A program made the translations under genes and the position numbers. From the NCBI GenBank assembly GCA_965116965.1, contig OZ220743.1, positions 111,262-175,261 on the forward strand: a DNA stretch of 64,000 nt, read 5' to 3'. Within the stretch, counting starts at the first letter, position 1. Each line of letters opens with the position of its first letter. The DNA is from Acidimicrobiales bacterium. Lineage in GTDB: Bacteria; Actinomycetota; Acidimicrobiia; Acidimicrobiales; Aldehydirespiratoraceae. Below, piece after piece: positions 27,000 to 54,433 of the stretch. The notes below the pieces were generated by a model. It had not been told where the DNA came from and searched no databases. It saw nothing but the letters and a program-made list of their open reading frames with translations.

Positions 27000-27024
27000 C
27001 TCGTCAAACCCGCTCGCCCCGCAC

Positions 27025-32481: not shown

Positions 32482-32576
32482 AGGTCTGGCCGATCCCGGT
32501 GCCGCGCATCGTACCCCGGTCGAGAGTCGCAGACAGGACCGGCGAGCCCCCCAACCCGGAGGCCGAGCGGGCAGGC

Positions 32577-37841: not shown

Positions 37842-37848
37842 AGTAGAT

Positions 37849-38025: not shown

Positions 38026-38909
38026 TGCTGGAGGGCCTCTAGGGAGCGGTTCAGGGAGTCGGCGGGGATGGGGGCCGCGCACCAGGTGACGCCTAGCTCG
38101 GCCAACTCCTGCAGGGCCTCCGAGTGGGCGTCGGGATTGAAGTCGTCGGCGACGGGGCTACCGCCGGCCAAGGTCATGAACGAGACGTCGATCTCTGCGG
38201 GGTCGCGACCGGCTGACTCGGCTTGACGCCATAGGTCGTCCAGCATCGCTCTCAAGTCGTCGAGTGTCTCCAGCGGGACCGTTCGGGCGGTGGTGGCCAG
38301 CCGTCGGGGGGCGGGGAACGGGACCCAACCGTCGGCGACGGTCGCGACACGCCGGCGGCTGAGGCGGCTGTTGCCTCCGATCCAGATCGGGATCGGCCGC
38401 TCCGGCTTGGGGTTGGCGGTCTGGCCCCGGGCCGTGAAGTTGCGGCCCTCGTAACTGAAGTCGTCGGTGGTCCACACGCCCCGCACGACCTCGATGGCCT
38501 CGTCGAACAGGTCGTTGCGCTCTTCGAAGTCCACTCCGAGGGCCCGGTACTCGCCCTTGAGGTAGCCGGTGCCCACGGCCAGCACGAACCGGCCGTCGGA
38601 CATAGCGTCGATGGTGGCCGCCGACTTAGCCACCAGGAACGGGTTGCGGTAGGGCAGCACCACCACGTTGGGGATCAACTGCACGCGCTCCGTGACCGCG
38701 GCCGTGAAGGCCAGCGCCGCGAAGGGATCGAGCGCGTCGTGGCCGCCGGCCGCCATCCAGCGGTGAGTCGGGGCGGGATGATCGGTGAAGCCAATCCCGT
38801 CGAAGCCGGCCTCCTCGGCCGCCCGGGCGAACTCCACGAGCCCTTGGCGCGTCGCGAACTCGGGGCTGCAGCGGCCCGCGGCCAGCGGGTACGTCACCGA
38901 GAACTTCAC
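37998..38909 (-). CDS. LLM-class F420-dependent oxidoreductase
   Basis: MKFSVTYPL..., FDGIGFTDHP, VVLPYRNPFLVAKSAATIDAMSDGRFVLAVGTGY and PIWIGGNS are luciferase-like monooxygenase family blocks. It uses a GTG start. Confidence 0.85.
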   Translation of the reverse strand: MKFSVTYPLAAGRCSPEFATRQGLVEFARAAEEAGFDGIGFTDHPAPTHRWMAAGGHDALDPFAALAFTAAVTERVQLIPNVVVLPYRNPFLVAKSAATIDAMSDGRFVLAVGTGYLKGEYRALGVDFEERNDLFDEAIEVVRGVWTTDDFSYEGRNFTARGQTANPKPERPIPIWIGGNSRLSRRRVATVADGWVPFPAPRRLATTARTVPLETLDDLRAMLDDLWRQAESAGRDPAEIDVSFMTLAGGSPVADDFNPDAHSEALQELAELGVTWCAAPIPADSLNRSLEALQHYGESVIGT

Positions 38910-39234
38910 GAACGAACCCTCCCGGCTGCCAACGCGAACCCGGCGATAGGCAAGAGCGCCACCGAGAACTTCACGAACGAACCCTCCCAGCTGCCAACGC
39001 GAACCCGGCGATAGGCAAGAGCGCCACCGAGAACTTCACGAACGAACCCTCCCAGCTGCCAACGCGAACCCGGCGATAGGCAAGAGCGCCACCGAGAACT
39101 TCACGAACGAACCCTCCCAGCTGCCAACGCGAACCCGGCGATAGGCAAGAGCGCCACCGAGAACGTCACGAACGAACTCTCCCAGCTCCCAGCTCGAACG
39201 CAACGGCAGGCACGAGCATCACCGAGAACTTCAC
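38906..39234 (-). repeat. tandem array of five 65-bp units, each a 22-codon mini-cistron (relay between the FGGY kinase stop and the LLM start)
   Basis: Unit starts (GTG) are at 39234, 39169, 39104, 39039 and 38974. Each reads GTG AAG/ACG TTC TCG GTG ... GGG AGG GTT CGT TCG TGA (MKFSVALLPIAGFALAAGRVRS). Each TGA overlaps the next GTG, and the final TGA overlaps the LLM GTG at 38909. Confidence 0.9.
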
Positions 39235-40785: not shown

Positions 40786-41691
40786 ATGAGTTCGCCGATT
40801 TGGGATCCGCACGGGCCAAGCCTCGTAGTGCTGAGGGACAATCTCCCCATACTCGCCGAACTCCCGGACGAGTCAATCACGTTGGTGTACATCGACCCTC
40901 CGTTCAACACCGGCCGTCGGCAGTCGAGGCAGACGCTGCGAACCACCAGAAGCGAGAAAGGCGATCGCGTCGGGTTCAAGGGTGCAACCTACAAGACAGT
41001 GAAGGGCTCGCTGTCGGCATATGACGACGCCTTCGGTGACTACTGGTCGTTCTTGGAGCCCAGGCTGGAGCAGGCATGGCGACTGCTGACAGACGATGGC
41101 ACGCTGTACCTGCACCTCGACTACCGCGAAGTCCACTACGCCAAGGTCGTGCTTGACTCACTGTTTGGCCGGGAGTGTTTCCTGAACGAGATTATTTGGG
41201 CCTACGACTACGGTGCTCGGGCGCGAAGCCGCTGGCCAGCCAAGCACGACAACATCCTCGTCTACGTGAAGAACCCCGACGCCTACCACTTCGACAACGC
41301 CACCGTCGACCGCGAGCCCTACATGGCTCCGGGCCTAGTAACACCCGAGAAGGCGGCCAAAGGCAAGTTGCCCACCGATGTCTGGTGGCACACCATCGTG
41401 TCGCCGACAGGCAAAGAGAAGACCGGCTATCCAACTCAGAAACCCGAGGGCATCCTCCGCCGTATCGTGCAAGCCAGCAGCCGACAGGGCGACTGGGTGC
41501 TCGACTTCTTCGCTGGCAGTGGCACGGCTGGTGCTGTCGCGGCTCAACTCGACCGTCGCTTCATAATGGTCGACAACAACCCAGAGGCCTACGAAGTGAT
41601 GCAAAGGCGCCTCGGGAACGGAGGGTTGCTAACATCGATCAAGTATCTGGACCTAAGCACCGACCAGCCCGCGGAGCAGACGGTTGCCTGA
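40786..41691 (+). CDS. type II DNA methyltransferase, beta-class amino-methyltransferase (N6-A or N4-C)
   Basis: Motif IV LVYIDPPFNTG near the N-terminus. TGYPTQKPEGILRRIV and AdoMet motif I VLDFFAGSGTAGAVA near the C-terminus. Confidence 0.85.
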   Translation: MSSPIWDPHGPSLVVLRDNLPILAELPDESITLVYIDPPFNTGRRQSRQTLRTTRSEKGDRVGFKGATYKTVKGSLSAYDDAFGDYWSFLEPRLEQAWRLLTDDGTLYLHLDYREVHYAKVVLDSLFGRECFLNEIIWAYDYGARARSRWPAKHDNILVYVKNPDAYHFDNATVDREPYMAPGLVTPEKAAKGKLPTDVWWHTIVSPTGKEKTGYPTQKPEGILRRIVQASSRQGDWVLDFFAGSGTAGAVAAQLDRRFIMVDNNPEAYEVMQRRLGNGGLLTSIKYLDLSTDQPAEQTVA

Positions 41692-42238
41692 CCACGAGAT
41701 TATAGATCCGGAGGTCACCCTCCTAGCGGAGATCGCGACGACACTCGAAGGTCAGTATTCAGACGACTTTTCGATGTGGGCGGGGAGTCCGTTCCGCTGG
41801 ATCAAGACCCGGCCATCAAGACACGTCGGTGCCATAGCCGAGAAGCTCGTGAGCCATTGGTGTGCCGCCAAGGATCTGAACGTGTCACGTTCCCCGGATA
41901 GCCAGGCCGACCTTGTGATCGACGGGGCGAGGGTAGAAGTGAAGTACTCCAGCCTCTGGACCGACAACGGCATCTACAAGTTCCAACAGATTCGAGACCA
42001 GAATTACGACTACTGCTTCTGTCTGGGCGTCTCGCCATTCGAAGCACACGCCTGGTTCATTCCAAAGCCGGTGTTGATGACAGACAAGCCGCCGTCTTTG
42101 GTGCCACAGCATGGCGGGCAAGCCGGTCGAGATACGAAGTGGCTGTCGTTTCCCGCCACCTCGCCCCCGGATTGGCTGGCCCCGTTCGGTGGCACGCTTT
42201 CGGAGGTTCAAGGGCTGATCTTGGAGGCCGTCCGCTAG
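41684..42238 (+). CDS. putative type II restriction endonuclease (PD-(D/E)XK-like)
   Basis: It overlaps the methyltransferase stop by 8 nt. The candidate catalytic core is PDSQADLVIDGARVEVKYSS (D...E-x-K). No other family similarity recognised. Confidence 0.5.
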   Translation: MPDHEIIDPEVTLLAEIATTLEGQYSDDFSMWAGSPFRWIKTRPSRHVGAIAEKLVSHWCAAKDLNVSRSPDSQADLVIDGARVEVKYSSLWTDNGIYKFQQIRDQNYDYCFCLGVSPFEAHAWFIPKPVLMTDKPPSLVPQHGGQAGRDTKWLSFPATSPPDWLAPFGGTLSEVQGLILEAVR

Positions 42239-42247
42239 TTTCGGCTC

Positions 42248-43219
42248 ATGAGTCGGCCTCGGGTGTTGGTTACCGCGCCCCTTCGGGGCCCTGCCCTCGA
42301 CGAGTTGCGCGACATCGCCGACGTGGTGTTCGAACCCTGGATCGAACACCAGCCGATCAAGCTCTACCGATCCCGAGACTTCGCGGCCAAGATCCGCCAC
42401 GAGGGAGCCGACATCGTCGTGTGCGAGGCCGACTCGTGCAAGGGTCCGGTGCTGGAGCTGCCGCTGACGGCCATCGCCTCCACCCGGGCCCGGCCCACCA
42501 ACGTCGATGTCGACGCGGCCACCGCGGCCGGCATTCCCGTGCTGCGCACACCTGGCCGCAACTCCGACGCCGTGGCCGAGATGACGGTGGCTCTGCTGAT
42601 GGCAGTGACCCGGTTCGTGGTCGCCGGCGACCGCGACGTGCGAGCGGGCACGATGTTCGGCGAGACCCTCCCCTACCAGCGCTACCGGGCCTGGCAGGTG
42701 GCGGGACGCACTGCCGGGCTGGTGGGACTGGGTGCCGTGGGTCGGGCCGCCAAGTGGCGCCTGGAGGGCCTGGGCATGACGATGATCGCCGCCGATCCCT
42801 ATGCCGCCGACGCCACCCACGGCCTCGACGACCTCCTGGCGACCGCTGACGTGGTGTCGATGCACGCCGCCGTAACGCCGGAGACGTCACAGATGATGGG
42901 CTCGGACCAGTTCGCGGCGATGAAGCCGGGGGCGATCTACCTCAACACGGCTCGGGCCGCACTGCACGACACCGACGCCCTGGTGGCCGCCCTGGAGTCG
43001 GGCCATCTGGCCGGCGCCGGCCTCGACCACTTCGAGGGCGAGATCCTGCCCACCGACCATCCCCTCACCGCCATGGACAACGTGGTGCTCACACCTCACA
43101 TCGGCGGGGCCACCTACGACGTGGAGAGCAAGCAGGCGGCCATCGTGGTGGCCGACATCAAGGCCATCCTGTCGGGCGGCAAGCCGCTCCACTGCGCCAA
43201 CCCGGAGGTCCTCGAGTGA
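42248..43219 (+). CDS. D-isomer-specific 2-hydroxyacid dehydrogenase (phosphoglycerate-dehydrogenase-like)
   Basis: NAD-binding GRTAGLVGLGAVGRAAKWRLEGLGM, catalytic region NTARAALHDTDALVAAL and TPHIGGAT. Confidence 0.85.
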   Translation: MSRPRVLVTAPLRGPALDELRDIADVVFEPWIEHQPIKLYRSRDFAAKIRHEGADIVVCEADSCKGPVLELPLTAIASTRARPTNVDVDAATAAGIPVLRTPGRNSDAVAEMTVALLMAVTRFVVAGDRDVRAGTMFGETLPYQRYRAWQVAGRTAGLVGLGAVGRAAKWRLEGLGMTMIAADPYAADATHGLDDLLATADVVSMHAAVTPETSQMMGSDQFAAMKPGAIYLNTARAALHDTDALVAALESGHLAGAGLDHFEGEILPTDHPLTAMDNVVLTPHIGGATYDVESKQAAIVVADIKAILSGGKPLHCANPEVLE

Positions 43220-43260
43220 GCATCGCTGCCAGCCATCCCAACCCGGAGGTCCTCGAGTGA
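43216..43260 (+). repeat. 41-bp duplicated gene junction forming one 14-codon relay mini-cistron
   Basis: caacccggaggtcctcgagtgagcatcg occurs at 43198 and again at 43239. GTG AGC ATC GCT GCC AGC CAT CCC AAC CCG GAG GTC CTC GAG TGA encodes MSIAASHPNPEVLE. Its GTG overlaps the dehydrogenase TGA, and its TGA overlaps the aldolase GTG at 43257. Confidence 0.85.
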
Positions 43261-43916
43261 GCATCGAAGGAGACCGTCAGGATCCTGTCCACCAGGAGGT
43301 AGCCGACGTCTCGCAGCAGATGGAGCGGGCCGGACTGGTGGTGGGCACGGCCGGCAACGTGTCGGGCCGCCGCAGCGACGGCTCGGTCTGCCTCACCCCG
43401 TCGTCCACCCCCTACCCCGACGTCACCGCCGGCAACCTCGCCGTCCTCAGCCTCGAGGGCGAGCACCTGGCCGGATCGGGCCAGCCGTCCACCGAGAAGG
43501 CCATGCACCTGGCCTGCTACAACGCCTTCGAAGAGGTCGGCGGCGTCGTCCACTGCCATCCGCCCCACGCCTCGATGTTCGCGGTGGCCCACCAGCCCAT
43601 CCCGGCCAGCATCGAGGAGGTGATCGTCTACGTGGGCGGCGACGTGCCGGTGGCCGACTACGCCACCACCGGCACCGACGAACTGGCCGCAGAGGTGGTG
43701 CGCCACCTGGCCGACCGGGGCGCGGTGCTGATGGCCAACCACGGCCTGCTGTGCGTGGGCAAGTCGCCGTCCGACGCGCTGCACACTGCCCTGGTGGTGG
43801 AGCACACCGCCAAGATCATGTTCGGGGCCCGCGTCCTGGGCGGCGTCGTATCCCTGCCCGAGAAGATCGCCAGGGACTTCGCCGGCATTTACGGCTACAT
43901 CCGCAGCACCTGGTGA
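43257..43916 (+). CDS. class II aldolase/adducin-family protein
   Basis: GTAGNVSGRR..., EKAMHLACY and HCHPPHASMFA are motifs of L-fuculose-phosphate-aldolase-like proteins. Confidence 0.85.
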   Translation: MSIEGDRQDPVHQEVADVSQQMERAGLVVGTAGNVSGRRSDGSVCLTPSSTPYPDVTAGNLAVLSLEGEHLAGSGQPSTEKAMHLACYNAFEEVGGVVHCHPPHASMFAVAHQPIPASIEEVIVYVGGDVPVADYATTGTDELAAEVVRHLADRGAVLMANHGLLCVGKSPSDALHTALVVEHTAKIMFGARVLGGVVSLPEKIARDFAGIYGYIRSTW

Positions 43917-43930
43917 CCGAAGGAGGACAC

Positions 43931-44770
43931 ATGCAGCACATGCTCTACGAGACCGACGGGCGGGTGGCGGTGATCACCCTTAACCGTCCCGAGAAAGCCA
44001 ACGCGGTCAGCGGCCTGACGCTCAACGAGATGGACGAGTGCTTCACCCGAGCCGCCGACGACGCCGACGTGAGGGTGATCGTGCTGCGGTCGGTCGGCAA
44101 GCACTTCTGCGCCGGTCACGACCTCTCCGGCAGCGACGAGGCCCTGGAGAAGGCCGCGGCAGGCGAGGGCAGCCCGGCCAAGGGCAGCTTCGTGGACTGG
44201 AAGGAGCGGGGCCTCGAAGCCATCTACGAATGGGAGACGATCCACTACCTCGGCTACAGCCGGCGCTGGCGCGACATCCCCAAGCCCACCATCGCGGCGG
44301 TGCAGGGCCAGTGCATCGCCGGGGGACTGATGCTGTGCTGGCCCTGCGATCTGATCATCGCCGCCGACAACGCCATGTTCTCCGATCCGGTGGCCCGCAT
44401 GGGCATCGGCGGGGTGGAGTACCACGGCCACACCTGGGAGCTCGGCCCCCGCAAGGCCAAGGAGATGCTGTTCACCGCTCGCCGGATCGGCGCGGCGGAG
44501 GCCGAGGCGGCCGGCATGGTCAACAGGGTCGTTCCCCTCGACGACCTCCACACCGAGACCATGGCGCTGGCCCATGAGATCGCCCAGATGCACCCCTTCG
44601 CTCTGGCCCAGTCCAAGCGGGCCGTCAACCGCACCATGGACATCCAGGGCTTCTACTCGGCGCTCCAGGCCGTGTTCGACATCCACCAGACGGGCCACGG
44701 CAACGCCCTGTCGGTGGGCGGATACCCGATCCTCACCGGCCTGACCGACATGAAGAAGTCCCAGTCCTGA
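43931..44770 (+). CDS. enoyl-CoA hydratase/isomerase (crotonase) family protein
   Basis: AGGAGGA lies upstream of ATG 43931. VAVITLNRPEKANAV, FCAGHDL and AAVQGQCIAGGLML are crotonase blocks. Confidence 0.85.
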   Translation: MQHMLYETDGRVAVITLNRPEKANAVSGLTLNEMDECFTRAADDADVRVIVLRSVGKHFCAGHDLSGSDEALEKAAAGEGSPAKGSFVDWKERGLEAIYEWETIHYLGYSRRWRDIPKPTIAAVQGQCIAGGLMLCWPCDLIIAADNAMFSDPVARMGIGGVEYHGHTWELGPRKAKEMLFTARRIGAAEAEAAGMVNRVVPLDDLHTETMALAHEIAQMHPFALAQSKRAVNRTMDIQGFYSALQAVFDIHQTGHGNALSVGGYPILTGLTDMKKSQS

Positions 44771-44810
44771 GAACCGTCAGCTAGGGGAGCCCCCCACCGG
44801 CTGACCTAGC

Positions 44811-46394
44811 GTGAGCCGTGTGAGTCTCTGGGAGCGGCCGGACGTTCACGCCCGGCGCTGGTTCCTGCTCGGCGTGCTGAGCCTGACCCTGGTGCTGGTG
44901 GTCATGTCGGTCTCGGGCCTGAACGTGGCCCTGGCCACCTTGCAGCGGGATGTGGGTGTCACCGGGCCGCAGCTGCAGTGGATCGTCAACACCTACGCGC
45001 TCGCCTTCGGCGGGCTGCTGATGACCGGCGGAGCCATCGGCGACCGCTACGGCCGCAAGGGCGCCCTGCTCGGAGGCCTGCTCGTGTTCGGGCTCGGCGC
45101 GCTCCTCGGAGGCTTGGCCGACTCGGCCGAGGTCATCCTGGTCGCCCGGGGAGCCATGGGGGTGGCGGCCGCCTTCGTCATGCCGGCCACGCTGTCGCTG
45201 CTGATCGAGATCTTCCCGCCGCCGGAGAGGCCGACCGCCATCGCGGTGTGGTCGGGCTTCGCCGGGGGCGGCGCCGCCATCGGGCCCGCGCTGACCGGCC
45301 TGTTCGTGACCGGATGGTGGTTCGTGCCGTCGTGGGGCTGGGAGGCCGGCTTCCTCTACAACGTCCCGGTGGTGGCGGTGGTGATGGTCGCGGTGGTGCT
45401 GTGGCTGCCCCGATCCCGGGACGAGCACCCCCGGCATCTCGACCCTGCCGGAGCGGCGCTGTCCATCGTGGCCATGACCGCCCTCATCTACGGCATCATC
45501 GAGGGACCCGAGCAGGGCTGGACATCGGCACCGGTGCTCTCGGCCTTCGCGGTGGCGGTCGTCTTCGGTGCGGTCCTGCTGGGGTGGCAGCAGCGAGCCC
45601 GCCATCCGATGCTGCCGCTGGAACTGTTCGGCGACCGGCGCTTCAGCATCGGCTCGGCCGTGGTCACCATGACGTTCGTCGTGATGATCGGGTTCTGGTT
45701 CCTGTTCGCGCTCTACGTGCAGTTCGTCCTGGGATACTCCGCCCTGGAGGCGGGGCTGGCGACCATGCCGGAGGCGCTGGCGTCGATGGTTGTGGCCCCG
45801 TTCACCGCCCCGCTCGCCGCCAGGTACGGATCGCGCCGGATCATGGCGGTCGGCTTCGCGGTGTTGGCGCTCACATTCCTGCCGCTGGCGATGGTCGACA
45901 CCGATACCAGCTATTGGTTCCTTCTGGGACCGCTGGTGCTGGCCGGGGCGGGTCTCAGCCTGGCCATGACCCCGGCCACCAACGACATCATGGTCGCCAC
46001 TCCCTACGACAAGGCCGGCATCGGCTCGGCCGTCAACGACACCGCCCGCGAGCTGGGGGCGGCGCTGGGCATCGCCACGCTGGGCGCCCTGTCCACCTCG
46101 ATCTACCGCAGCACGGTGGACGTGGCCCAGCTACCGCCCGAGGTGGCCTCCCCGGCGGCCGAGTCGATGGGTGCGGCCATCGAGGCCGCCTACCAGCTGT
46201 CCCGATCGGGCACGCTGGGCGAGGCCGCGGCTCAGGCGACGATCACCGAGACGGGGCAGGCCTTCACCACTGCCTTCGCCCAGACGATGGCGATATCGGG
46301 CGTAGTGTCGGCCCTGGCCGCGGTCGCGCTGCTAGTCGGCCACCTCGCCGAGGCCCGCGCCCGCCCCAGAGGCCGACTGGTAGGCGGCGGATGA
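44811..46394 (+). CDS. MFS transporter, DHA2 (EmrB/QacA, 14-TM) type
   Basis: 527 aa with about 14 hydrophobic segments. Motif GAIGDRYGRKGALLGGL (the MFS motif A-like G-x-x-x-D-R-x-G-R-K). Confidence 0.85.
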   Translation: MSRVSLWERPDVHARRWFLLGVLSLTLVLVVMSVSGLNVALATLQRDVGVTGPQLQWIVNTYALAFGGLLMTGGAIGDRYGRKGALLGGLLVFGLGALLGGLADSAEVILVARGAMGVAAAFVMPATLSLLIEIFPPPERPTAIAVWSGFAGGGAAIGPALTGLFVTGWWFVPSWGWEAGFLYNVPVVAVVMVAVVLWLPRSRDEHPRHLDPAGAALSIVAMTALIYGIIEGPEQGWTSAPVLSAFAVAVVFGAVLLGWQQRARHPMLPLELFGDRRFSIGSAVVTMTFVVMIGFWFLFALYVQFVLGYSALEAGLATMPEALASMVVAPFTAPLAARYGSRRIMAVGFAVLALTFLPLAMVDTDTSYWFLLGPLVLAGAGLSLAMTPATNDIMVATPYDKAGIGSAVNDTARELGAALGIATLGALSTSIYRSTVDVAQLPPEVASPAAESMGAAIEAAYQLSRSGTLGEAAAQATITETGQAFTTAFAQTMAISGVVSALAAVALLVGHLAEARARPRGRLVGGG

Positions 46395-46556
46395 GCGGCG
46401 CCTCTCACCCACCCAGCGAGGCCGTGGCCCGAGCGGCCCGTGAGCGAAGCGAACAACAGCGGGAAGCAACATGCTTCATCGCGACGTCGTTCGATTCATT
46501 TGCACGGACCGGATAACCGTCGAACAACAGCGGGAAGCAACACGCCTCATCGCGAC
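46395..46556 (+). repeat. copy of the dispersed intergenic element plus an internal 36-nt direct duplication
   Basis: agcgaggccgtggcccgagcggcccgtgagcgaagcgaacaacagcggga, then cgaacaacagcgggaagcaaca(t/c)gc(t/c)tcatcgcgac at 46450 and 46521. Confidence 0.8.
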
Positions 46557-46564
46557 TCCGTCAT

Positions 46565-46580
46565 GGCCCAATGATGGGCC
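46565..46580. terminator. short perfect hairpin between convergent MFS genes (possible bidirectional terminator)
   Basis: ggccca-atga-tgggcc. No U-tract follows, so a terminator function is only a guess. Confidence 0.25.
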
Positions 46581-46608
46581 ACGGGCCAGTGCGATGGGGT
46601 CAGCGGAG

Positions 46609-47754
46609 TCAGAAGCGGTCGGCTACACAGATCGACACGGCTGCGCCGGCCACCGACGAGGCAGCCACGGCCAGCCACATCGCCGGGTAGCCGGAGTGCT
46701 CGATCAGCCATCCCGTGACCAGAGGCCCGATGAATACCCCTACGTAGACGCCCATCTGCGTGATCCCGGTGGCGCTGCCGGCAGCCCGGGGGTTGGCCCG
46801 CACGATCCCGTAGTTGGTGAACACCGGCCAGATCCAGCCGCATCCGAACGACAGCAGCATGGCGGCCACATGGGTGGCCGGCGAGCGCAGCGCCAGCCCG
46901 GCCATGCCTATCGAGCCGAACAGGGCGGTGATGCCCCCCACCCGGAACGGCTTGACCCTCATCGTGTCCGACAGCCGGCCGCTCGCCACTCTCATCGCGA
47001 TGCCGGTGGCCGCCCCGACACTAAGGAACAGTCCGGCGGTGCCGGGTCCCAGCCCGGCGTCGACGCCGGAGCCGACCCCCCACGCGACGAGCGATCCAGC
47101 ACTGAAGGCCAGGAACGCACCCACCGCGGCGCCCAGGAAGAGGTCCCGGGACGACGACTCCGGCTCGGCTGCGCGGGCCGGAGTCCGGAACACCGACGAC
47201 CCGACGGCCGCCCTGACCAGCACCAGCGACATCAGCGCGAACACCGCGCCGGCCACATAGGCCCAGCGCCAGCCCACACCGACGGCCAGCGAGGGCACTG
47301 CGAAGCCCGCCAGCAGGGTGGCCGTGGGCAGGCCCGACTGCTTGATCGACACGGCCAGACCCAGCCGAGGCAGTTGAGCCTGGGCCAGGGCCAGGTTGAC
47401 CGACGTCTGGTTGGCGGCGTTGGCCAGCCCGGCCAGCACCAGGAAGCCGATCACCGCCAGGAACGAGCGGGCGCTGGCGGCCAGAGCCAGCTGCACCGCT
47501 ATGGACACTGAGAGCGCGAGGGTCATCTGGTTGAGCGGCCCGATCCGCTGGGCCAGCCGGCCCAGCATGACCGACCCGACCATGGCGGCCCCGAAGAACG
47601 ATCCGAGACCCCATCCGTACACCCCCTCGGAGACGCCCATCTCCGCACTCACCTGCACCGACATGGCGCCGATGAGGAACCCGGGCAGCACGGTGGACAC
47701 GGTGGCCATCACCGCGGCACCGATCACCAGGGACGGACGCGCTTCAGCAGACAC
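46609..47754 (-). CDS. MFS transporter (12-TM type)
   Basis: The start is set at GTG 47754, with GAGAGGGAAG upstream. The longer ORF to 47859 would read through the MITE-like repeat. Multiple TM segments are present throughout. Confidence 0.75.
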   Translation of the reverse strand: MSAEARPSLVIGAAVMATVSTVLPGFLIGAMSVQVSAEMGVSEGVYGWGLGSFFGAAMVGSVMLGRLAQRIGPLNQMTLALSVSIAVQLALAASARSFLAVIGFLVLAGLANAANQTSVNLALAQAQLPRLGLAVSIKQSGLPTATLLAGFAVPSLAVGVGWRWAYVAGAVFALMSLVLVRAAVGSSVFRTPARAAEPESSSRDLFLGAAVGAFLAFSAGSLVAWGVGSGVDAGLGPGTAGLFLSVGAATGIAMRVASGRLSDTMRVKPFRVGGITALFGSIGMAGLALRSPATHVAAMLLSFGCGWIWPVFTNYGIVRANPRAAGSATGITQMGVYVGVFIGPLVTGWLIEHSGYPAMWLAVAASSVAGAAVSICVADRF

Positions 47755-47777
47755 GGCGCGAACTCTTCCCTCTCGCT

Positions 47778-47878
47778 CTAGTGGTCCGTCGCTGAAATGA
47801 TCGGGGTGTCCGGAGCGCTCCCAAGCAGGGTCTCGGTCCTGCTGCGCTGCCCTAGCCATTTCGACGACACAGCTCTAG
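47778..47878 (+). mobile_element. 93-bp MITE-like element flanked by CTAG duplications (copy 2)
   Basis: See 13445-13545. It occupies almost the whole spacer between the thioesterase stop (the right-hand CTAG contains that stop codon) and the MFS start. Confidence 0.6.
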
Positions 47879-48705
47879 CCCAGGTCGATGGGACGGATCA
47901 TGCACTCCTGGGCGAAGGAGGCGAGCAGCGCACCGCCGGCGTCGAAGGCGTGGCCCTGGCCGAAGCCCCGGGCCCGGGCCAGCGTGGGCGAGTGCTGCGT
48001 GATCAGGCACCACTGGTCGAGGCGGAACGGGCGGTGGAACCAGACGGTGTGGCTGGTCACTGCGGTGTGGAGGGTGCGGTAGGAGTCGGCCTGGCTCACG
48101 CCCTCGACCGGGAGCAGCACGGTCCCGACGATGGTGAGGTCGGTGGCGTGGGCCAGCAGCGCCTGGTGAACGGCCGGGTCGTCGCCCAACCTCCGGTCCT
48201 CGACGCGGGTCCAGAAGGCGTAGCGGGGAGGAGCCGGTGCGGGGTCCCGCAGGTCTGCGCCGCCCGTCACCCTGGTCGTCCAGGGGATCATGGACATCTC
48301 CGTCGCGGCGGCCTCGTCGGGGTGGCCCGCCTCGGGGGCGGGCTTCTGATGCTCGAAGGCCGACGCGGGCTCCAGCGCGTGCATCGAGAGCAGGGCGGCG
48401 AAGATGGTCCTGCCATGCTGGCCGGCCCGGACCCGGCGCAGCGCGAAGGTCCGTCCGGTCTGGGTCTCCTCCACCTCGAACTCGATTGGATCGGTGGTCG
48501 AACCCTCCCGCGGGAACAGGCAGCTCAACGACTTGACAACCTTGCCCTCGGTGGTGGCCGCCCCCAGCGCGACCGCTTGGGCCAGTAGCTGGCCGCCGAA
48601 GATCCGGGGATAGTCCATCTCGATGTTGGGCGCGGTCCACACGCCCGGCCGCACCGGCTCCACTTCCAGGCAGCCGAGCAGGTCGTCGATGGTGATGACC
48701 GCCAT
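47875..48705 (-). CDS. acyl-CoA thioesterase II (TesB-like, double hot-dog)
   Basis: IFGGQLLAQAV..., SLSCLFPREG... and HTVWFHRPFRLDQW are characteristic of TesB-type thioesterases. Confidence 0.85.
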   Translation of the reverse strand: MAVITIDDLLGCLEVEPVRPGVWTAPNIEMDYPRIFGGQLLAQAVALGAATTEGKVVKSLSCLFPREGSTTDPIEFEVEETQTGRTFALRRVRAGQHGRTIFAALLSMHALEPASAFEHQKPAPEAGHPDEAAATEMSMIPWTTRVTGGADLRDPAPAPPRYAFWTRVEDRRLGDDPAVHQALLAHATDLTIVGTVLLPVEGVSQADSYRTLHTAVTSHTVWFHRPFRLDQWCLITQHSPTLARARGFGQGHAFDAGGALLASFAQECMIRPIDLG

Positions 48706-48797
48706 CAGGACGTCTCGGCGGTTTCATGCCCGCTCTTGTTCGCTGCGCTCACGGGCCGCTCGGGCCACGGCCTCGCTGAGCGTCTCGCCGGGATCAC
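48705..48797 (-). CDS. 30-codon intercistronic mini-ORF carried by the dispersed element
   Basis: Its GTG (48797-48795) overlaps the DUF35 stop (GTGA). It encodes VIPARRSARPWPERPVSAANKSGHETAETS. Its TGA (48707-48705) overlaps the thioesterase ATG at 48705 (TGATG). Confidence 0.5.
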   Translation of the reverse strand: MIPARRSARPWPERPVSAANKSGHETAETS

Positions 48798-49231
48798 CGG
48801 GCGTCACCGCCCAACCGCTCGGCCTCTGCAGGACGGAACAGCGGAACGTGCCACTCGCCGCTCTCCTCGAACAGCACCTCGACCCGCATCCCGATCTCGA
48901 CCTCGTCGATGTCGCAGTCCACGATGTTGGTGCCGATCCGCACCGTCGGATCCTCGTCGAGTTCGACGAGCGCGAAGACATAGGGCGGCGTGAACCCCGG
49001 GATCCACTCCTTGCGATTGATCGTGTACGTGGCCACGGTGCCGGTTCCGGCCACCGGCTCGGGGCCGACCCGGCGCGAGTGGCAGAAGGGGCAGGCCGGG
49101 CCGGGCGGGTGGACCCAGCGGGAGCATTCGCCGCAACGCTGGATCCTGAGCCGGCCGTCGGCCCCGGAACGCCAGTAGAACTCGCTCTCGGGCGAGGCCA
49201 GCACGAACCGGGGCGGGTTGTCCGCGCTCAT
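48794..49231 (-). CDS. Zn-ribbon/OB-fold protein (DUF35), thiolase partner
   Basis: Rubredoxin-like CGECSRWVHPPGPACPFC followed by an OB-fold region. It lies immediately downstream of an SCP-x-type thiolase. Confidence 0.85.
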   Translation of the reverse strand: MSADNPPRFVLASPESEFYWRSGADGRLRIQRCGECSRWVHPPGPACPFCHSRRVGPEPVAGTGTVATYTINRKEWIPGFTPPYVFALVELDEDPTVRIGTNIVDCDIDEVEIGMRVEVLFEESGEWHVPLFRPAEAERLGGDAR

Positions 49232-49511
49232 GACGGTCCCCTGGTCAGCCGGTTGTCCGCGCTCACGACAGGCACCGAGTCAGCCGGTTGTCCGCGCTCA
49301 TGACGGTCCCCTGGTCAGCCGGTTGTCGGCGCTCACGACAGGCACCGAGTCAGCCGGTTGTCCGCGCTCATGACGGTCCCCTGGTCAGCCGGTTGTCGGC
49401 GCTCACGACAGGCACCGAGTCAGCCGGTTGTCCGCGCTCATGACGGTCCCCTGGTCAGCCGGTTGTCGGCGCTCACGACAGGCACCGAGTCAGCCGGTTG
49501 TCGGCGCTCAT
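49228..49511 (-). repeat. tandem array of eight 35-bp units (four 70-bp double units), each a 12-codon mini-cistron (relay between the thiolase stop and the DUF35 start)
   Basis: Starts at 49511, 49476, 49441, 49406, 49371, 49336, 49301 and 49266 alternate ATG and GTG. ATG AGC GCS GAC AAC CGG CTG ACT CGG TGC CTG TCG TGA encodes MSADNRLTRCLS, and GTG AGC GCC GAC AAC CGG CTG ACC AGG GGA CCG TCA TGA encodes SADNRLTRGPS. Every stop overlaps the next start, and the last overlaps the DUF35 ATG at 49231. Confidence 0.9.
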
Positions 49512-50686
49512 GACGGTCCCCTGGTCAGCAGCAGGCATCCGGTCTCGGGGCCGCCGCCGGCTCCGACCGCGACCACCTCGCAGCCGGGGACCTGGACGTT
49601 GGCTGTGCCCCGCAACTGCATCACTGCCTCGTGAAGGTGGCCGAAGCCGTGCAGCCGGCCCGCGGAGAGCTGGCCGCCGGACGTGTTGAGCGGCGCCGGG
49701 CCGTCGGGGCCGATGTTGGCGCCGCCCTCCACGAAGGCCCCGCTCTCCCCCTTGCCGCAGAAGCCCATGGCCTCGATCCAGGCCAGGGTCAACCAGCTGA
49801 AGCCGTCGTACAGCTGAGCGGTGTCCACGTCGTCGACCGTCAGCTCGGTGCGCTCCCACATCGAGGCGGCGGTGTGGCGCATCATCATCGACGTCAGGTC
49901 GTCGAACTGGTCCCAGGAGGGCCGGCCCCGGATGGCGGTCCCCATGGCGTTGACGCCGACCGCGCCCGCCGGGGCGTCGGGTGAGTGGTCGCGGTGCGAG
50001 ACCACCACCGCGGTGGACCCGTCGCAGGGAACATCACAGTCGTAGAGGCACAGCGGGTCGCTGATCATCCGCACGGCCAGGTAGTCGTCGATGGTCATGG
50101 GATCGGTGTAGACGGCCTGGGGGTTGGCCGCCGCGTTGGCCCGCCCGTTGATCGCAATGGCGCCGAGCTGCGTGCGGGTGGTGCCGTAGTCGTGCATGTG
50201 GCGGCGGGCGTAGCAGGCGACCCAGCAGGCGGCCGACGCCGCTCCGTAGGGGATCATGAACTGGAACGGACCGGCCGAGCCGGCCATCGGGCCGCCCCCA
50301 CCGCCGCCGCCGGGGCGCAACGGCCCTCCGCTGCCCTCCACCACGGTGCGGAACACCAGCACGTGGCGAGCCAGGCCGGTCGCCACCGCCAGGATGGCGT
50401 TGTGGACCGCGCCCAGCGGGCCGGCAGTCTCCACGCCCGAGCTGCGCCAGTTGAGCGCCAACCGCAGCGCCTCGTGCAGTTCAGCCCCCATGGCCCCTCC
50501 GAAGGAGCCGCCGAAGCCCGGATAGGTGGACACCCCGTCGATGTCGGCCGTCGTCAGCCCGGCGTCGGCGACCGCCCGGAGTGCGGCCTCGACGGTGAGG
50601 TCGATGCCGGTGCGGTACAGCCGGCGGCCGATCTCAGACTGGGCCGCGCCGCTGATAACGGCCCGCCGCTCCCGAGGCTCACCCAT
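49508..50686 (-). CDS. thiolase-like lipid-transfer (SCP-x-type) protein
   Basis: 392 aa with a thiolase-superfamily fold pattern (VISGAAQSEIGR..., GVSTYPG..., CDVPCDGSTAVVV, GGQLSAGRLHGFGHLHEAVMQLRG). It is paired with a DUF35 gene. Confidence 0.8.
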   Translation of the reverse strand: MGEPRERRAVISGAAQSEIGRRLYRTGIDLTVEAALRAVADAGLTTADIDGVSTYPGFGGSFGGAMGAELHEALRLALNWRSSGVETAGPLGAVHNAILAVATGLARHVLVFRTVVEGSGGPLRPGGGGGGGPMAGSAGPFQFMIPYGAASAACWVACYARRHMHDYGTTRTQLGAIAINGRANAAANPQAVYTDPMTIDDYLAVRMISDPLCLYDCDVPCDGSTAVVVSHRDHSPDAPAGAVGVNAMGTAIRGRPSWDQFDDLTSMMMRHTAASMWERTELTVDDVDTAQLYDGFSWLTLAWIEAMGFCGKGESGAFVEGGANIGPDGPAPLNTSGGQLSAGRLHGFGHLHEAVMQLRGTANVQVPGCEVVAVGAGGGPETGCLLLTRGPS

Positions 50687-50783
50687 CAGCCTCGCCTCCG
50701 GCGACCGATCGAACTCCTGTCAAGAATCCACCTCTCAGGTGGGAGACCCGCGGGTAGTTCGGCCCGAGGCTCCGCAACCATCA

Positions 50784-51512
50784 TCAACGGGCTGCTCCCG
50801 ACTCGAACAGGCGGGATTCCAGGAGGGCTCCTGCCTCGGCCGTCGGGCCCTGCCAGGTGATCAGCCCGTGCTCCAGGACTGCAGCCCGGTCGCACAGTTC
50901 CAGCGCGTGGCCGACCTGCTGCTCCACGATCAGCAAAGCTGTCCCCGCCCCCCGGATCTGCGAGAGCGTCCCGAACACCTGGTCCACAACCATCGGAGCG
51001 AGACCGAGGGAGAGTTCGTCGGCGATCAGCAGCCGGGGCGACTCCACCAGCACCCGGGCCAGCGAGAGCATCCTCTGCTCGCCGCCCGACATCGTGCCGG
51101 CCATCTGGCCGCGGCGCTCGCCCAGCCGGGGGAACAGCTCGTAGGCCCGGTCCAGCCCGCCGGCCAGCCCGGCTCGGCCGAAGGCCCTTTGGAACGACAG
51201 CGCCAGATTCTCCTGCACGGTCAGCGAAGCGAACACCGAGCGACCCTCGGGCGCATGGGCCACCCCTCGGCGCACGAAGTACCAGGCCGACGAGCGGCCG
51301 TCCGAGACCGGCTCGCCGTCCACCAGCACCCGCCCCGCCGTCGGCGTTACCAGCCCGCTGGCTACCCGGGCCAGAGTGGTCTTGCCCGCGCCGTTGGCAC
51401 CGACCAAGGCCACCGCCTCTCCCAGGCCGACCGACAGGGACACGCCGAACAGCGCCCGGAACGGGCCATAGCCGGCCTCCACGTCGCGCAACTCAAGGAT
51501 CGGCGCGCTCAC
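50784..51512 (-). CDS. ABC transporter ATP-binding protein, LivF-like
   Basis: Walker A GANGAGKTT, signature SGGEQRML and Walker B LLIADE. GTG 51512 (GGAGA upstream) is preferred over ATG 51566, which would add an atypical N-terminal extension. Confidence 0.8.
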   Translation of the reverse strand: MSAPILELRDVEAGYGPFRALFGVSLSVGLGEAVALVGANGAGKTTLARVASGLVTPTAGRVLVDGEPVSDGRSSAWYFVRRGVAHAPEGRSVFASLTVQENLALSFQRAFGRAGLAGGLDRAYELFPRLGERRGQMAGTMSGGEQRMLSLARVLVESPRLLIADELSLGLAPMVVDQVFGTLSQIRGAGTALLIVEQQVGHALELCDRAAVLEHGLITWQGPTAEAGALLESRLFESGAAR

Positions 51513-51614
51513 GACACGATCTCCCCAGGCCTGGGTCAGCGCAAGAAGGCGCGCGTGCCGCCGCATTCCGCACAGAGAACCTCACAACGCGCCGAAACGG
51601 GCCTTCGCACCTGC

Positions 51615-52382
51615 TCACGAGACCTCGAAGCTACCGAGATAGGCCCGACGGACCGAGGGATCGGCCAGCACGCCCGCGGTTGAACCCTCCGCGATGAGCG
51701 CGCCGGAGTCGAGCACGTAGGCCCGTTCAGTGAAATCGGCCACCAACGACACATCATGCTCCACCAGCAGCACCGCATAGCCGCGGGCGTCCTGCACGGC
51801 CCGCAGGGTGGCGGCCAAGGCCTGGGTCTCGTCCCGGTCGAGTCCCGACGAGGGCTCGTCGAGCAGCAGGACCTGTGGACCCGTCATCAGCGCCCGCCCG
51901 ACCTCCACCAGCCGGCTCTGCCCCAGGCTGAGCGACTCGACCGGCTTGGCGGCGAGATCGGCGACGCCCAGCAGTTCCAGCACCTCGTCGCACGCGGCGA
52001 CCTCGTCGGGCGTCGGCCGGCCCCGGCCGATCAGGTCCTTCCAGAATGCGCCCGTGCCGTTGCGGATCCGCTCCGCGATCAGCAGGTGCTCGCGCACGGT
52101 GGTGTCGGCGAACAGCTCGACCCGCTGGAACGTCCGGCCCATGCCGGCGCGGGCCCGGCGATGGGCGGGCCAGCCGCCGACATCGACGCCGTTGAGCAAC
52201 ACCCGACCGGCGTCGGGCCGCAGAATCCCGAGCAGGCAGTTGAACAGAGTGGTCTTGCCCGCGCCGTTGGGGCCGATCAGACCCACGCGCTCCGTGGCCG
52301 CGACGCTCACGCTCACATCGTCGAGGGCGCGGATACCCGCAAAGGCCACACTCACGCCGGAAACCTCCAGCAGCCGCGTCAT
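51615..52382 (-). CDS. ABC transporter ATP-binding protein, LivG-like
   Basis: Walker A GPNGAGKTT, signature LSLGQSRLVEV and Walker B LLLDEPSSGL. Its ATG overlaps the permease stop (ATGA). Confidence 0.9.
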   Translation of the reverse strand: MTRLLEVSGVSVAFAGIRALDDVSVSVAATERVGLIGPNGAGKTTLFNCLLGILRPDAGRVLLNGVDVGGWPAHRRARAGMGRTFQRVELFADTTVREHLLIAERIRNGTGAFWKDLIGRGRPTPDEVAACDEVLELLGVADLAAKPVESLSLGQSRLVEVGRALMTGPQVLLLDEPSSGLDRDETQALAATLRAVQDARGYAVLLVEHDVSLVADFTERAYVLDSGALIAEGSTAGVLADPSVRRAYLGSFEVS

Positions 52383-54433
52383 GTCGCGGCCCCCTGGCGG
52401 GCCTCGAGCCAGCGGTTGATGCGGGCAGCCGAGCGCCGCTTGCCGTGCTCCACCAGGCCCTCGGGATGGCGGGCGAACTGCATGGCCATGAGACCGAACA
52501 GGATCAGCCGCCAGTTGCCCGACAGGGGGAAGAACTCAGGGAGACGCTCCTCCCCCCGCACGATCCAGCCGAGCAGCTCGCCCTGCAGTATCAGCGGCTC
52601 GAACAGGGCGAAGGCCGCACCGGCCTGGATGGCTCCCTCCACGGTGCGAGCCCCGAGCGCGACCACCACCACCAGCCAGAACAACGCGACGACAGGAGCG
52701 AAGTTGAGCGCGTAGTTCACATTCTGCTGATGCATCGCCAGCAGCGCTCCGCCCAACCCGGCGATGGCGGCCGACACCGCGAAGGCGACGATGCGGGCCC
52801 GAGCCGCGGAGACGCCGATCGACGCGGCGGCCACCTCGCTGCCCCGGAGGGCGGCCAGAGTGCGCCCGATCGTGCCCTCGCGCAGCTGTATCACCACCAC
52901 CGACGCCACCACCAGCGCCACCACCGCCAGCACCAGGAAGGCCCGGTCGCTGGCGAAGTCGATCGGCCCGATCAGCGGGCGGGGCACCTGGGTGCCGGTG
53001 AGCAGGGCGGTGCTTCCGCCGCCCACCCAGGAGAACCTCACCATCACCGCGTCGAAGAAGAAGGCGAACGCCAGCGTGGCGATGGCGAGCCACACTCCCC
53101 CCAACCGCAGGACCGGAAGCGACAGCAACGCTCCGACTACAGCGGCCAGGGCCGCTCCGATCAGCGCGGCGGCCAGAACCGACATGTTGAACCGGTCCGC
53201 CATCTGGAAGACGGTGAAGCCTCCGATGGCCGCGAACGTCCCCTGGCACAGCGAGATCTGGCCGCCCATGCCGGTGATGACGGTGACCGACAGGTAGATG
53301 AGCGCGATGATCACCGCCTTCGTCACGAGGCTCATCCACAGGACGTCGGCCCGGAACCACACCACCAGCCCGACGACGGTCACGAAGAACACCCCGAACA
53401 GCCTGGTGAACAGCGTCAACTGGGGGTGACGCTCGAGGGCGGCCAACGCCGGAGGCGGGGGGTCCACGCCGGCCAGGGGATCGGACGCCTCGCGCTGCCG
53501 GCCGACGGCGCGCCACAGCACGAGGATGGCGAACAGCACGACGAACGGCAGCGACGGGGTGAGATTCTCCTGGAAGGGCCGCAGCCAGGTGTGGTCGTCG
53601 GCCAGTCCGGGCAGGAAGGTGTTGAACACCGCGATGAACCATCCCAGTCCGAGCCCGCCCAGCAGAGCCCGGGGCAGGCTGACGAGCAGTCCTGTGGCCG
53701 CCGCGGCCACCGCGATGATCACCAGCGTGAAGTAGTCCCCCGAGCTGAGCGAGTTGAACCGGGGCGCGATCAGCACGCCGGCCATGCCCGCGAACGTGCT
53801 CGACAGGGCCCAGGCGAACGCCGAGACCCGGTCGGCGTTGATGCCGCTCAACTCGGTCATCCGGGGACTCTCCACCACCGCCCGCATGGACAGGCCCATC
53901 ATCGTGAAGCGGAACAGGGCGGCCAACAGCAGCGTGCCGGCCAGCGCCACCGCCATCATGGCCACCTCGTCGCGGTTGAAGCGGTAGACCCCGAACGGGT
54001 CGTAGTACACGCCGGCGCCGTCACCCACGATGCCGGTTATCCGCCGACCGGCGACGGCGCTGAACCGGGCTGCCCAGTTGAAGATCTCGGGCAGGGCCAC
54101 GCTGAGACCGATGGTGACGACCAGCTTCGACACCGCCGAAGCGGTGCGGAGGTGGCGGAAGACAGCTCGCTCGAGCACCAGGCCCACCAGCGGCGCCAGC
54201 ACGAACACCGACACGAGGAGGGCCGCCCACTTGGGCCAGCCCCACACGCTGTGGGCTTTGAAGTACATGGCGGCCGAGATGTAGGCCTGCGCGCCGAACG
54301 CCAGGTTGAACACGCCGGAGGTCTTGTAGGTGAGCACGAAGCCGAGGGCGATGAGCGCGTAGACCGCTCCGGGCGGCGTGCCCTGCAAGACGCCTCGGAA
54401 GAGGTCCTCGAAGAACCCGGAAGCGAGGATCAC
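52379..54433 (-). CDS. fused branched-chain-amino-acid-type ABC permease (LivH-LivM fusion)
   Basis: The GTG 54433 start gives VILASGFFEDLFRGVLQGTPPGAVYALIALGFVLTYKTSGVFNLAFGAQ (LivH-like), then a second permease domain (...GGQISLCQGTFAAIGGF..., LivM-like). 684 aa. Confidence 0.8.
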   Translation of the reverse strand: MILASGFFEDLFRGVLQGTPPGAVYALIALGFVLTYKTSGVFNLAFGAQAYISAAMYFKAHSVWGWPKWAALLVSVFVLAPLVGLVLERAVFRHLRTASAVSKLVVTIGLSVALPEIFNWAARFSAVAGRRITGIVGDGAGVYYDPFGVYRFNRDEVAMMAVALAGTLLLAALFRFTMMGLSMRAVVESPRMTELSGINADRVSAFAWALSSTFAGMAGVLIAPRFNSLSSGDYFTLVIIAVAAAATGLLVSLPRALLGGLGLGWFIAVFNTFLPGLADDHTWLRPFQENLTPSLPFVVLFAILVLWRAVGRQREASDPLAGVDPPPPALAALERHPQLTLFTRLFGVFFVTVVGLVVWFRADVLWMSLVTKAVIIALIYLSVTVITGMGGQISLCQGTFAAIGGFTVFQMADRFNMSVLAAALIGAALAAVVGALLSLPVLRLGGVWLAIATLAFAFFFDAVMVRFSWVGGGSTALLTGTQVPRPLIGPIDFASDRAFLVLAVVALVVASVVVIQLREGTIGRTLAALRGSEVAAASIGVSAARARIVAFAVSAAIAGLGGALLAMHQQNVNYALNFAPVVALFWLVVVVALGARTVEGAIQAGAAFALFEPLILQGELLGWIVRGEERLPEFFPLSGNWRLILFGLMAMQFARHPEGLVEHGKRRSAARINRWLEARQGAAT

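Follow-up and report, generated by a model that had tools for sequence, protein, structure and literature searches.

Eight tandem mini-cistrons between a thiolase gene and its DUF35 partner in an Acidimicrobiales genome: a probable minisatellite derived from its own gene junction

The window analysed here, the whole 64-kb stretch of contig OZ220743.1, comes from an Acidimicrobiales bacterium near Candidatus Aldehydirespirator, whose family is sponge-associated. On its minus strand lie a gene for an SCP-x or lipid-transfer-type thiolase and, downstream of it, a gene for a DUF35 (ChsH2-type) protein; the spacer between them is an array of eight tandem 35-nt units, each of which is a putative mini-cistron (Table 1). 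The thiolase matches Pfam family PF22691 (Thiolase_C_1, 1.2e-30), and its best NCBIfam match is the "lipid-transfer protein" thiolase subfamily, under that model's curated cut-off, with a weak match to BbsB. The downstream protein matches zf-ChsH2 and OB_ChsH2_C (formerly DUF35; PF12172 and PF01796), and Pfam agrees for both flanks with the genes called in an earlier reading of this DNA (here, the first-pass annotation). The thiolase-DUF35 adjacency is kept in orthologues L002-L011, which have this gene order, and in the close relatives L082-L089 (related loci are cited by such numbers), and L012 is without the DUF35 gene. Physical complexes are known for other members of these families, namely Ltp2-ChsH2, the archaeal thiolase/HMGCS/DUF35 complex and BbsAB. 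No promoter-like or terminator-like sites were found in positions 48500-51000. A scan that follows stop/start overlaps finds all three operon junctions here (ABC ATPase to thiolase, thiolase to DUF35, and DUF35 to acyl-CoA thioesterase) bridged by open reading frames (ORFs).

The array fills the interval between the thiolase stop and the DUF35 start exactly, as four 70-nt A+B double units. The thiolase gene ends in ...CTGACCAGGGGACCGTCATGA, and its TGA stop codon (49510-49508) is overlapped by an ATG at 49511. From this point eight 12-codon mini-ORFs follow (minus-strand starts at 49511, 49476, 49441, 49406, 49371, 49336, 49301 and 49266), those with ATG encoding MSADNRLTRCLS and those with GTG encoding VSADNRLTRGPS in alternation, and mechanical cutting of the minus strand gives an RTGA (ATGA or GTGA) stop/start overlap at all nine links from thiolase through DUF35. 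The first-pass annotation had described this geometry of 35-nt spacing, alternating starts and overlapping stops, and the minus-strand reading reproduces it, including the eighth ORF that overlaps the DUF35 ATG at 49231 (MSADNPPRF...). Tandem Repeats Finder (TRF) reports the array with a period of 70 (4.5 copies, 99% matches, score 614) and with a period of 35 (81% matches, score 432), and a degenerate pattern for the 35-nt unit matches eight times in the window where 100 shuffles lead one to expect 0.00.

Each unit is laid out as a 12-nt DUF35 head (GCGCSGACAACC), the connector GGCTGAC and a 16-nt tail. The head is identical to the 5' codons of the DUF35 gene, and the B tail (CAGGGGACCGTCATGA) is the tail of the thiolase gene, the identity between B unit and thiolase extending over 22 nt. 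The A tail is TCGGTGCCTGTCGTGA, also written CTGACTCGGTGCCTGTCGTGA, and no thiolase C-terminus that matches it (..RCLS) is present among 120 homologues. The earlier statement that every unit joins a DUF35 head to a thiolase tail is therefore exact for the B units and fails for the tails of the A units. The two variants had also been put at about 70% identity; counted, they are 80-83% identical, with six differences that all lie within the last 16 nt. These changes turn the ATG of the tail into GTG and weaken the Shine-Dalgarno (SD)-like AGGGGA. With 6 of 16 tail positions different and the 19-nt heads identical, the contrast between the two parts has a Fisher P of 0.005-0.03. The A variant may be a copy that diverged long ago, a patch altered by conversion or a variant favoured by selection. 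At unit position 5, C and G variants are ordered along the array (C,C / G,C / G,C / G,G), and over 22 nt the last unit rebuilds the native upstream context of DUF35 exactly (GCTGACCAGGGGACCGTCATGA).

Table 1. The thiolase/DUF35 array, its flanking genes and other bridged junctions (positions in the window)
Feature	Coordinates	Strand	Evidence
Upstream gene, SCP-x / lipid-transfer-type thiolase, 392 aa, ends ...LLLTRGPS then stop, with GTCATGA	49508..50686	-	ORF list, Pfam, NCBIfam
Downstream gene, DUF35 / ChsH2-type zinc-ribbon + OB-fold protein, 145 aa, ATG 49231 (MSADNPPRF...)	48794..49231	-	ORF list, Pfam
Array, eight 35-nt units	49228..49507	-	strand reading, TRF, pattern search
Mini-ORF 1, ATG start overlapping thiolase TGA, MSADNRLTRCLS then stop	49473..49511	-	unit cutting
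Mini-ORF 2, GTG start (GTGA overlap), VSADNRLTRGPS then stop	49438..49476	-	unit cutting
Mini-ORF 3, ATG start, MSADNRLTRCLS then stop	49403..49441	-	unit cutting
Mini-ORF 4, GTG start, VSADNRLTRGPS then stop	49368..49406	-	unit cutting
Mini-ORF 5, ATG start, MSADNRLTRCLS then stop	49333..49371	-	unit cutting
Mini-ORF 6, GTG start, VSADNRLTRGPS then stop	49298..49336	-	unit cutting
Mini-ORF 7, ATG start, MSADNRLTRCLS then stop	49263..49301	-	unit cutting
Mini-ORF 8, GTG start, VSADNRLTRGPS then stop, TGA overlapping DUF35 ATG	49228..49266	-	unit cutting
Bridging ORF, ABC ATPase to thiolase, 32 codons (MMVAEPRAEL...RRRG then stop), TGATG (-1) overlaps at both ends	50686..50784	-	link scan
Bridging ORF, DUF35 to acyl-CoA thioesterase, 30 codons (VIPARRSARPWPERP...), GTGA upstream and TGATG downstream, holds dispersed ~50-nt element	48705..48797	-	link scan, spacer comparison
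Second relay, five 65-nt units (38906-39230), FGGY kinase (39231-40559) to luciferase-like monooxygenase (37998-38909)	38906..39234	-	link scan
Single 41-nt mini-cistron, 2-hydroxyacid dehydrogenase (HADH) to class II aldolase (VSIAASHPNPEVLE then stop)	43216..43260	+	link scan, tail-copy search

The closest sequenced relatives, which are about 7-11% diverged in thiolase DNA, have 0, 1 (47 nt) or, in the window itself, 8 units at this junction. A plain 4-nt overlap is present in L002, L082, L084 and L085/L086, as it is in five of the six more distant same-order orthologues L004-L008 and L011, and L009 may also have a -4 overlap. In L003, L083, L087 and L088 there is a single 47-nt spacer, a length of the 3n-1 class, that holds an open ORF of 16 codons and has an RTGA overlap at each end. 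The encoded peptides are mutually unrelated (VSADKTSASCSLKVPS, VSADKNPAPRSQRGLA, VSRGAGAGAQLERVPL) and their length is conserved; the 47-nt spacers thus conserve geometry and not sequence. The A tail was considered as an orthologue of the 47-nt spacer tails, with which it has GGTGCC in common, and this was rejected because in register it agrees by eye at 11 of 16 positions, the same as the B tail. Judged from these sequences, the ATGA/GTGA overlap appears to be the ancestral state of the junction and the eight-unit array appears to be confined to the lineage of the window. In a neighbour-joining tree of the thiolase genes, which is almost a star, the junction states are scattered, and the tree does not settle gains against losses, those of the 47-nt spacer included.

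The units seem to belong to this place only. A pattern search with three mismatches and blastn-short found no 35-nt units elsewhere in the window or in about 0.8 Mb of related loci, and an all-against-all comparison of spacers matched units only to their own arrays and to orthologous junctions, the units of different junctions being unrelated. In a scan of Joint Genome Institute (JGI) metagenomes, the joint of head and tail that is diagnostic of the unit turned up just three times, each a single chance match within an unrelated gene. An origin at the junction itself would begin with the tandem duplication, by slippage or unequal recombination, of a 35-nt segment lying across the ancestral RTGA overlap. 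With its period of the 3n-1 class, such a duplication would create a chimeric mini-cistron of the first five DUF35 codons and the last six or seven thiolase codons whose stop falls precisely on the following start. The tail of one copy would then have diverged to give the A variant, and the 70-nt A+B pair would have been amplified to four copies; the latter step was probably recent, since the copies are 99% alike.

The architecture is not unique to this gene pair. A second relay, of five 65-nt units, lies 10 kb from the array, between an FGGY kinase gene and a luciferase-like monooxygenase gene. Its ORFs have 22 sense codons and a stop (VKFSVALLPIAGFALAAGRVRS) with GTGA overlaps throughout, each unit opens with the first five codons of the monooxygenase gene (with one substitution in unit 2), and the next GTG is preceded at 8 nt by GGGAGG in units 2-5 and by GGGAGA in unit 1. 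This junction also varies among relatives, with no units in L082 and L083, one 65-nt unit in L085 and diverged single units of 71 nt in L087 and 62 nt in L088. The single 41-nt mini-cistron between HADH and aldolase ends in 23 nt that are an exact duplicate of the dehydrogenase tail. In L084 a 68-nt relay (8318-8535; VTAVLEAREGARATPVAPDGAAP then stop) joins an ABC permease gene to an ATPase gene with two units between the genes and 3.2 copies by TRF. By inspection, the 41-nt and 68-nt units are chimeras of a downstream head and an upstream tail, as the 35-nt unit is.

Within the window, 7 of the 17 co-directional junctions with gaps of 8-400 nt are bridged in this manner, against 1.25 expected when spacers are shuffled and length-jittered, and none of 200,000 simulations reached 7. 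Bridged junctions are found throughout the clade by a scan that follows overlapping stops and starts from coding-looking ORFs. The first-pass annotation took the units for mini-cistrons coupled in translation, and this reading gains support from the recurrence far above chance and from the junction-derived periods, all of which are 3n-1; as a statement about translation it remains a prediction. Further bridging mini-ORFs on the minus strand are a single one at 26999-27028 and a chain of three at 19143-19398.

When a segment across an RTGA overlap is duplicated, its length decides what the ribosome would meet. A 3n-1 duplication makes a self-terminating mini-ORF, a 3n duplication lengthens the downstream protein, and a 3n+1 duplication brings ribosomes out of frame over the start codon. 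The four independent periods derived from junctions (35, 41, 65 and 68) are all 3n-1 (P = 0.012). A period-blind search for copies of an ORF's last 16 nt shortly downstream of it, from which a trivial 11-nt case was left out, recovered 41 (HADH-aldolase, in the window), 35/70 (the array), 68 (L084), 59 (the aldolase tail of L088/L089) and a 102-nt insertion of a hairpin element in L003; no 3n+1 period was among the duplications it found. Tandem arrays in uncoupled intergenic DNA, on the other hand, have periods of 34, 60/61, 66/67 and 18. The 34-nt (3n+1) array, in L084, was taken up as a possible counter-example; it sits in an uncoupled spacer (a CTGA stop with no overlapping start) and it serves instead as a control. 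These periods are suggestive, though not conclusive, of a reading-frame filter on the duplications that survive, and it would be selection that acts as this filter.

If the links work as their geometry implies, a ribosome that ends the thiolase would reinitiate at the overlapping ATG, translate 12 codons, terminate and reinitiate again, and so on down to the DUF35 start, to which the last unit would hand it in the native 22-nt context. Coupling is most efficient when stop and start are spaced by -4 to +3 nt (PMC12548453), and serial reinitiation from unit to unit may be expected here. The effect would be a passive one: DUF35 would stay translatable, the 280-nt insert would stay covered by ribosomes, and out-of-frame readthrough of the DUF35 start would be avoided. 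Such protection of DUF35 translation would account for the survival of 3n-1 duplications. The calculated anti-SD pairing of the unit tails is -6.5 kcal/mol for B and -5.3 kcal/mol for A (background mean -4.2), and because the pairing before the DUF35 start is weak (-6.5 kcal/mol) DUF35 is probably dependent on coupling. The array strand folds no better than its shuffles (z = +0.64), and an Rfam scan of 37500-52500 gave nothing beyond a chance miRNA match (E = 0.88).

On balance it is probable that the array is a locus-specific minisatellite that arose from its own gene junction, is tolerated there and acts as a passive translational relay. Several observations count against this interpretation. 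The array is known from a single 6x long-read assembly, and its translation as a relay is predicted from the sequence. The weak anti-SD pairing may leave de novo initiation within the array inefficient, and unless every link is almost perfect, few of the thiolase's ribosomes would come through nine of them in series and DUF35 output could fall sharply (by arithmetic only, 0.9^9 = 0.39 and 0.7^9 = 0.04). The 3n-1 statistic is built on just four independent events, and the concentration of A/B differences in the tails is not explained by simple neutral divergence. Lastly, both relay spacers of L089 carry a 5-nt insertion, which lengthens one from 47 to 52 nt and the other from 62 to 67 nt and breaks both frames; relative to L088 these are GGGGC and GCCGA, at 11228-11275 and 20038-20100, each within a simple GC-rich run. 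L089 and L088 differ by 0.56%, with no frame-breaking or single-base indels within genes over 13 kb in a comparison of about 11 kb of coding sequence (one genic indel placed by the aligner, at the HADH 5' end, resembles an alignment artefact), and since the coding sequence is otherwise clean the insertions are probably real. It follows that the relay frame is favoured and not essential. The first-pass annotation had named departures from 3n-1 spacing in relatives, without consequence, as what would speak against a relay; L089 provides the departures, which may or may not have a consequence, and comes close to that case.

The thiolase protein is recorded on two contigs, of which the readable one (L001, ENA ERZ25072196 ctg193710_6x_l) has an identical array. 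Only two G-homopolymer indels separate L001 from the window, which indicates that it is the same 6x long-read data in another state of polishing and not independent support; gaps that MAFFT opened inside the array in this comparison are an artefact of two cancelling 70-nt shifts, and direct comparison shows identity. Exact-protein look-ups with DUF35 and aldolase returned no record, and no same-species genome was found in the protein look-ups or the JGI metagenome scan. The 6x label of the contig, the homopolymer differences typical of long-read consensus error and the lack of the array in any independent assembly are what an assembly artefact, or a true repeat with a wrong copy number, would have in its favour, and we regard either as quite unlikely. 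The array contains no indels, its position-5 variants are ordered as expected of a real array, and its 280 nt fit well within one long read. A single unit at the second junction in the independent short-read scaffold L085 and the two-unit relay of L084 also argue against an artefact; together, the clean sequence, the ordered variants and these single or double units at other junctions of independent assemblies argue that the array is real. Insertion and amplification at the DUF35 start codon of a mobile element similar to MIRUs (mycobacterial interspersed repetitive units) or REPs (repetitive extragenic palindromes) would be in keeping with the behaviour of MIRUs, and a dispersed ~50-nt element of this genome does have a copy in the neighbouring DUF35-thioesterase spacer. 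It is nevertheless very unlikely, as the two flanking gene ends account for the whole 35-nt B unit, the array has no hairpin, and the 64-kb window, the related loci and the metagenomes yielded no other copies apart from the three chance matches.

The first-pass annotation went further than coupling and suggested that coupling strength at this junction could set the ratio of thiolase to DUF35; in an adaptive form of this idea the number of links, selected or phase-variable, would set the ratio of their translation. The genes are conserved neighbours with an ancestral -4 overlap, the weak anti-SD pairing at the DUF35 start makes coupling dependence probable so that copy number could alter output, and copy number does vary among relatives (0/1/8 at thiolase/DUF35 and 0/1/5 at the second junction). 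Relatives function with 0 or 1 units, however, and eight are evidently not needed, since in the closest of them the two genes simply overlap by 4 nt or are joined by one 47-nt mini-ORF. Similar arrays also lie between unrelated gene pairs (FGGY kinase/luciferase-like monooxygenase and permease/ABC ATPase) with no evident stoichiometric logic, the frame is broken at both junctions in L089, and variation in copy number within the species was not found in the look-ups and metagenome scan. Adaptive tuning is accordingly unlikely, though less so than any of the other alternatives; most likely the copy number is not tuned, and any effect it has would be to weaken the coupling of thiolase to DUF35. 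That the units act as DNA or RNA, as protein-binding iterons or structured regulatory RNA with the ORFs incidental, is as improbable as a mobile element. Tandem repeats at promoters can be regulatory in M. tuberculosis (PMC12817950) and the TCATGA of the B tails is palindromic, but the position is within an operon, with no promoter-like or terminator-like sites, Rfam match or excess folding, and such a role leaves the 3n-1 bias and the RTGA at both ends of spacers in diverged relatives unexplained. Least probable of all is a function for the 12-residue peptides as such. Actinobacteria have many small proteins (cited in PMC12548453) and eight copies would supply a peptide in quantity, yet this peptide is simply the N-terminal end of DUF35 joined to the C-terminal end of the thiolase, relatives with one unit at this junction encode peptides of unrelated sequence, and the closest relatives lack the array.

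A junction-derived minisatellite that relays ribosomes has its nearest likeness in the MIRUs. According to PMC12548453, which summarises Supply et al. 1997, MIRU ORFs are coupled at -4 nt and this coupling is thought to preserve downstream translation. MIRUs resemble the array in being short tandem units between co-directional operon genes, with a small ORF per unit that overlaps its neighbours at -4 nt and a copy number that varies between lineages, and differ in being a dispersed, apparently mobile family with a common consensus, whereas the array units are built from their own flanking gene ends. The array differs also in its shorter unit of 35 nt, in its two alternating variants with ATG and GTG starts and in its host, a marine member of the Acidimicrobiia (Aldehydirespiratoraceae) and not a mycobacterium. 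Interspersed copies, which the name MIRU calls for, were not seen in 64 kb of host genome, about 0.8 Mb of related loci or the JGI metagenomes. Because the flanking gene ends account for the unit, sequence homology to the MIRU consensus is not to be expected and the likeness is one of architecture. At 53 and 77 bp, the classic MIRUs have lengths of the 3n-1 class as well.

Among other known arrangements, ordinary ATGA/GTGA coupled gene pairs have the same kind of overlap as every link of the array and as the ancestral thiolase/DUF35 junction, but they have a single link where the array has nine in succession, spaced by 12-codon ORFs. We know of no measurement of serial reinitiation across so many links. 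In bicistronic-design or leader-ORF cassettes, as in the array, a short ORF that ends on a gene start delivers ribosomes to it and frees it from the local SD or mRNA structure (PMC12548453); these have a single engineered or natural leader, unlike a naturally amplified intercistronic series. Promoter and intergenic variable-number tandem repeats (VNTRs) of M. tuberculosis share minisatellite expansion and contraction near genes, with possible effects on expression (PMC12817950), and are transcriptional features at promoters, whereas the array is intercistronic and its features (frame, stop/start overlaps) are translational. REP elements and miniature inverted-repeat transposable elements (MITEs) combine a stable hairpin with dispersed copies, and the array has neither (z = +0.64; no dispersed copies). 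The array is best classed as an intercistronic VNTR of MIRU-like form that derives from its own flanks, and as one case of a wider pattern of ORF-bridged junctions in the clade.

A more general reading, which we put forward only tentatively and consider rather less likely than not to be correct, is that across the clade 4-nt overlaps are the birth sites of intercistronic DNA. Of the duplications made there only those of 3n-1 length would survive; they would diverge into the bridged spacers that occupy about 40% of operon junctions with a gap, and some would now and then expand into VNTRs. If so, operon spacers, de novo small ORFs and perhaps MIRU-type elements would have one general origin that selection filters, and the copy series 0/1/8 and 0/1/5 could serve for measurement of serial termination-reinitiation and of subunit stoichiometry. 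The mechanism of coupling (scanning by 70S or 30S versus mRNA unfolding) is still debated and the efficiency of repeated reinitiation is largely unmeasured; here nature offers one gene pair joined by 1, 2 or 9 -4 links in a row, and a second series at another gene pair. The locus is of value for this copy-number series and for its apparent filter on 3n-1 lengths rather than for any proven part in regulation, and the phylogenetic setting is new. It shows, too, that a MIRU-like architecture can arise locally from junction sequence, with no mobile element involved. In annotation, such arrays and bridging mini-ORFs are otherwise read as plain intergenic gaps. Should the arrays be neutral passengers, their use would be as VNTR markers for the uncultured Acidimicrobiia that are associated with sponges and corals.

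Other repeats in these genomes are of different kinds. The dispersed ~50-nt GC-rich element (CAGCGAGGCCGTGGCCCGAGCGGCCCG.GAGCG.AGCGAACAA.AGCGGG) occurs at 48718-48796, 34746-34795 and 46414-46463 and within 32576-32813, with copies 96-98% identical. It has a predicted hairpin of -18.6 kcal/mol and resembles an intergenic repeat of the REP kind; the greater part of the DUF35-thioesterase bridging ORF consists of one copy, which is conserved in L083. The region 32576-32813, between divergently oriented genes for a P450 and an AMP-binding enzyme, is made of 60/61-nt tandem units with a 121-nt double period (100% identity between doubles). This array is not a relay, is absent in L082 and L083 (where the gap is 40-126 nt) and has a 24-nt core in common with the ~50-nt element. 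A 66/67-nt tandem array lies in the divergent HADH/FGGY promoter region of L088 (18345-18546, 3.1 copies), L089 (18314-18571, 3.9) and L087 (17962-18157, 3.0), and is likely a live VNTR because L088 and L089 are only 0.56% diverged. A 105-bp dispersed repeat (47773-47877 and 13442-13546, 96% identical) has one copy across the thioesterase stop and the 5' end of a major facilitator superfamily (MFS) transporter gene.

Two of the duplications recovered by the period-blind search have features of their own. The 59-nt duplication of the aldolase 3' tail (L088 16503-16624, L089 16508-16629) contains a second mini-ORF that runs out of frame over the start of an enoyl-CoA hydratase gene. The 102-nt insert of L003 (2899-3001), between ABC ATPase and thiolase genes, contains an inverted repeat of 18 bp without mismatches (TTCTTGACGTAGTTGTGC...GCACAACTACGTCAAGAA), and the ...CCCCGCTGATG junction is duplicated on its two sides; it resembles a short palindromic element whose target has been duplicated.

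The window has a plus-strand gene for an N6/N4 DNA methyltransferase (40786-41691) that separates the FGGY kinase gene from the 2-hydroxyacid dehydrogenase gene. No gene is present at this position in L082, L083 and L085, and L084 has one beside its dehydrogenase gene, which suggests a local insertion or rearrangement. Three repeats lie in frame within coding sequence: 33-nt units at 63083-63306 (IAEARDEFRTG, 4.6 copies, 100% identical), 21-nt heptad units at 37602-37750 (seven FEKIDGR-like copies in a small ORF with a weak, sub-cut-off match to the DUF7310 coiled coil) and 36-nt acidic, proline-rich units at 21496-21599. With these coding repeats and its intergenic arrays, the genome is unusually rich in minisatellites.

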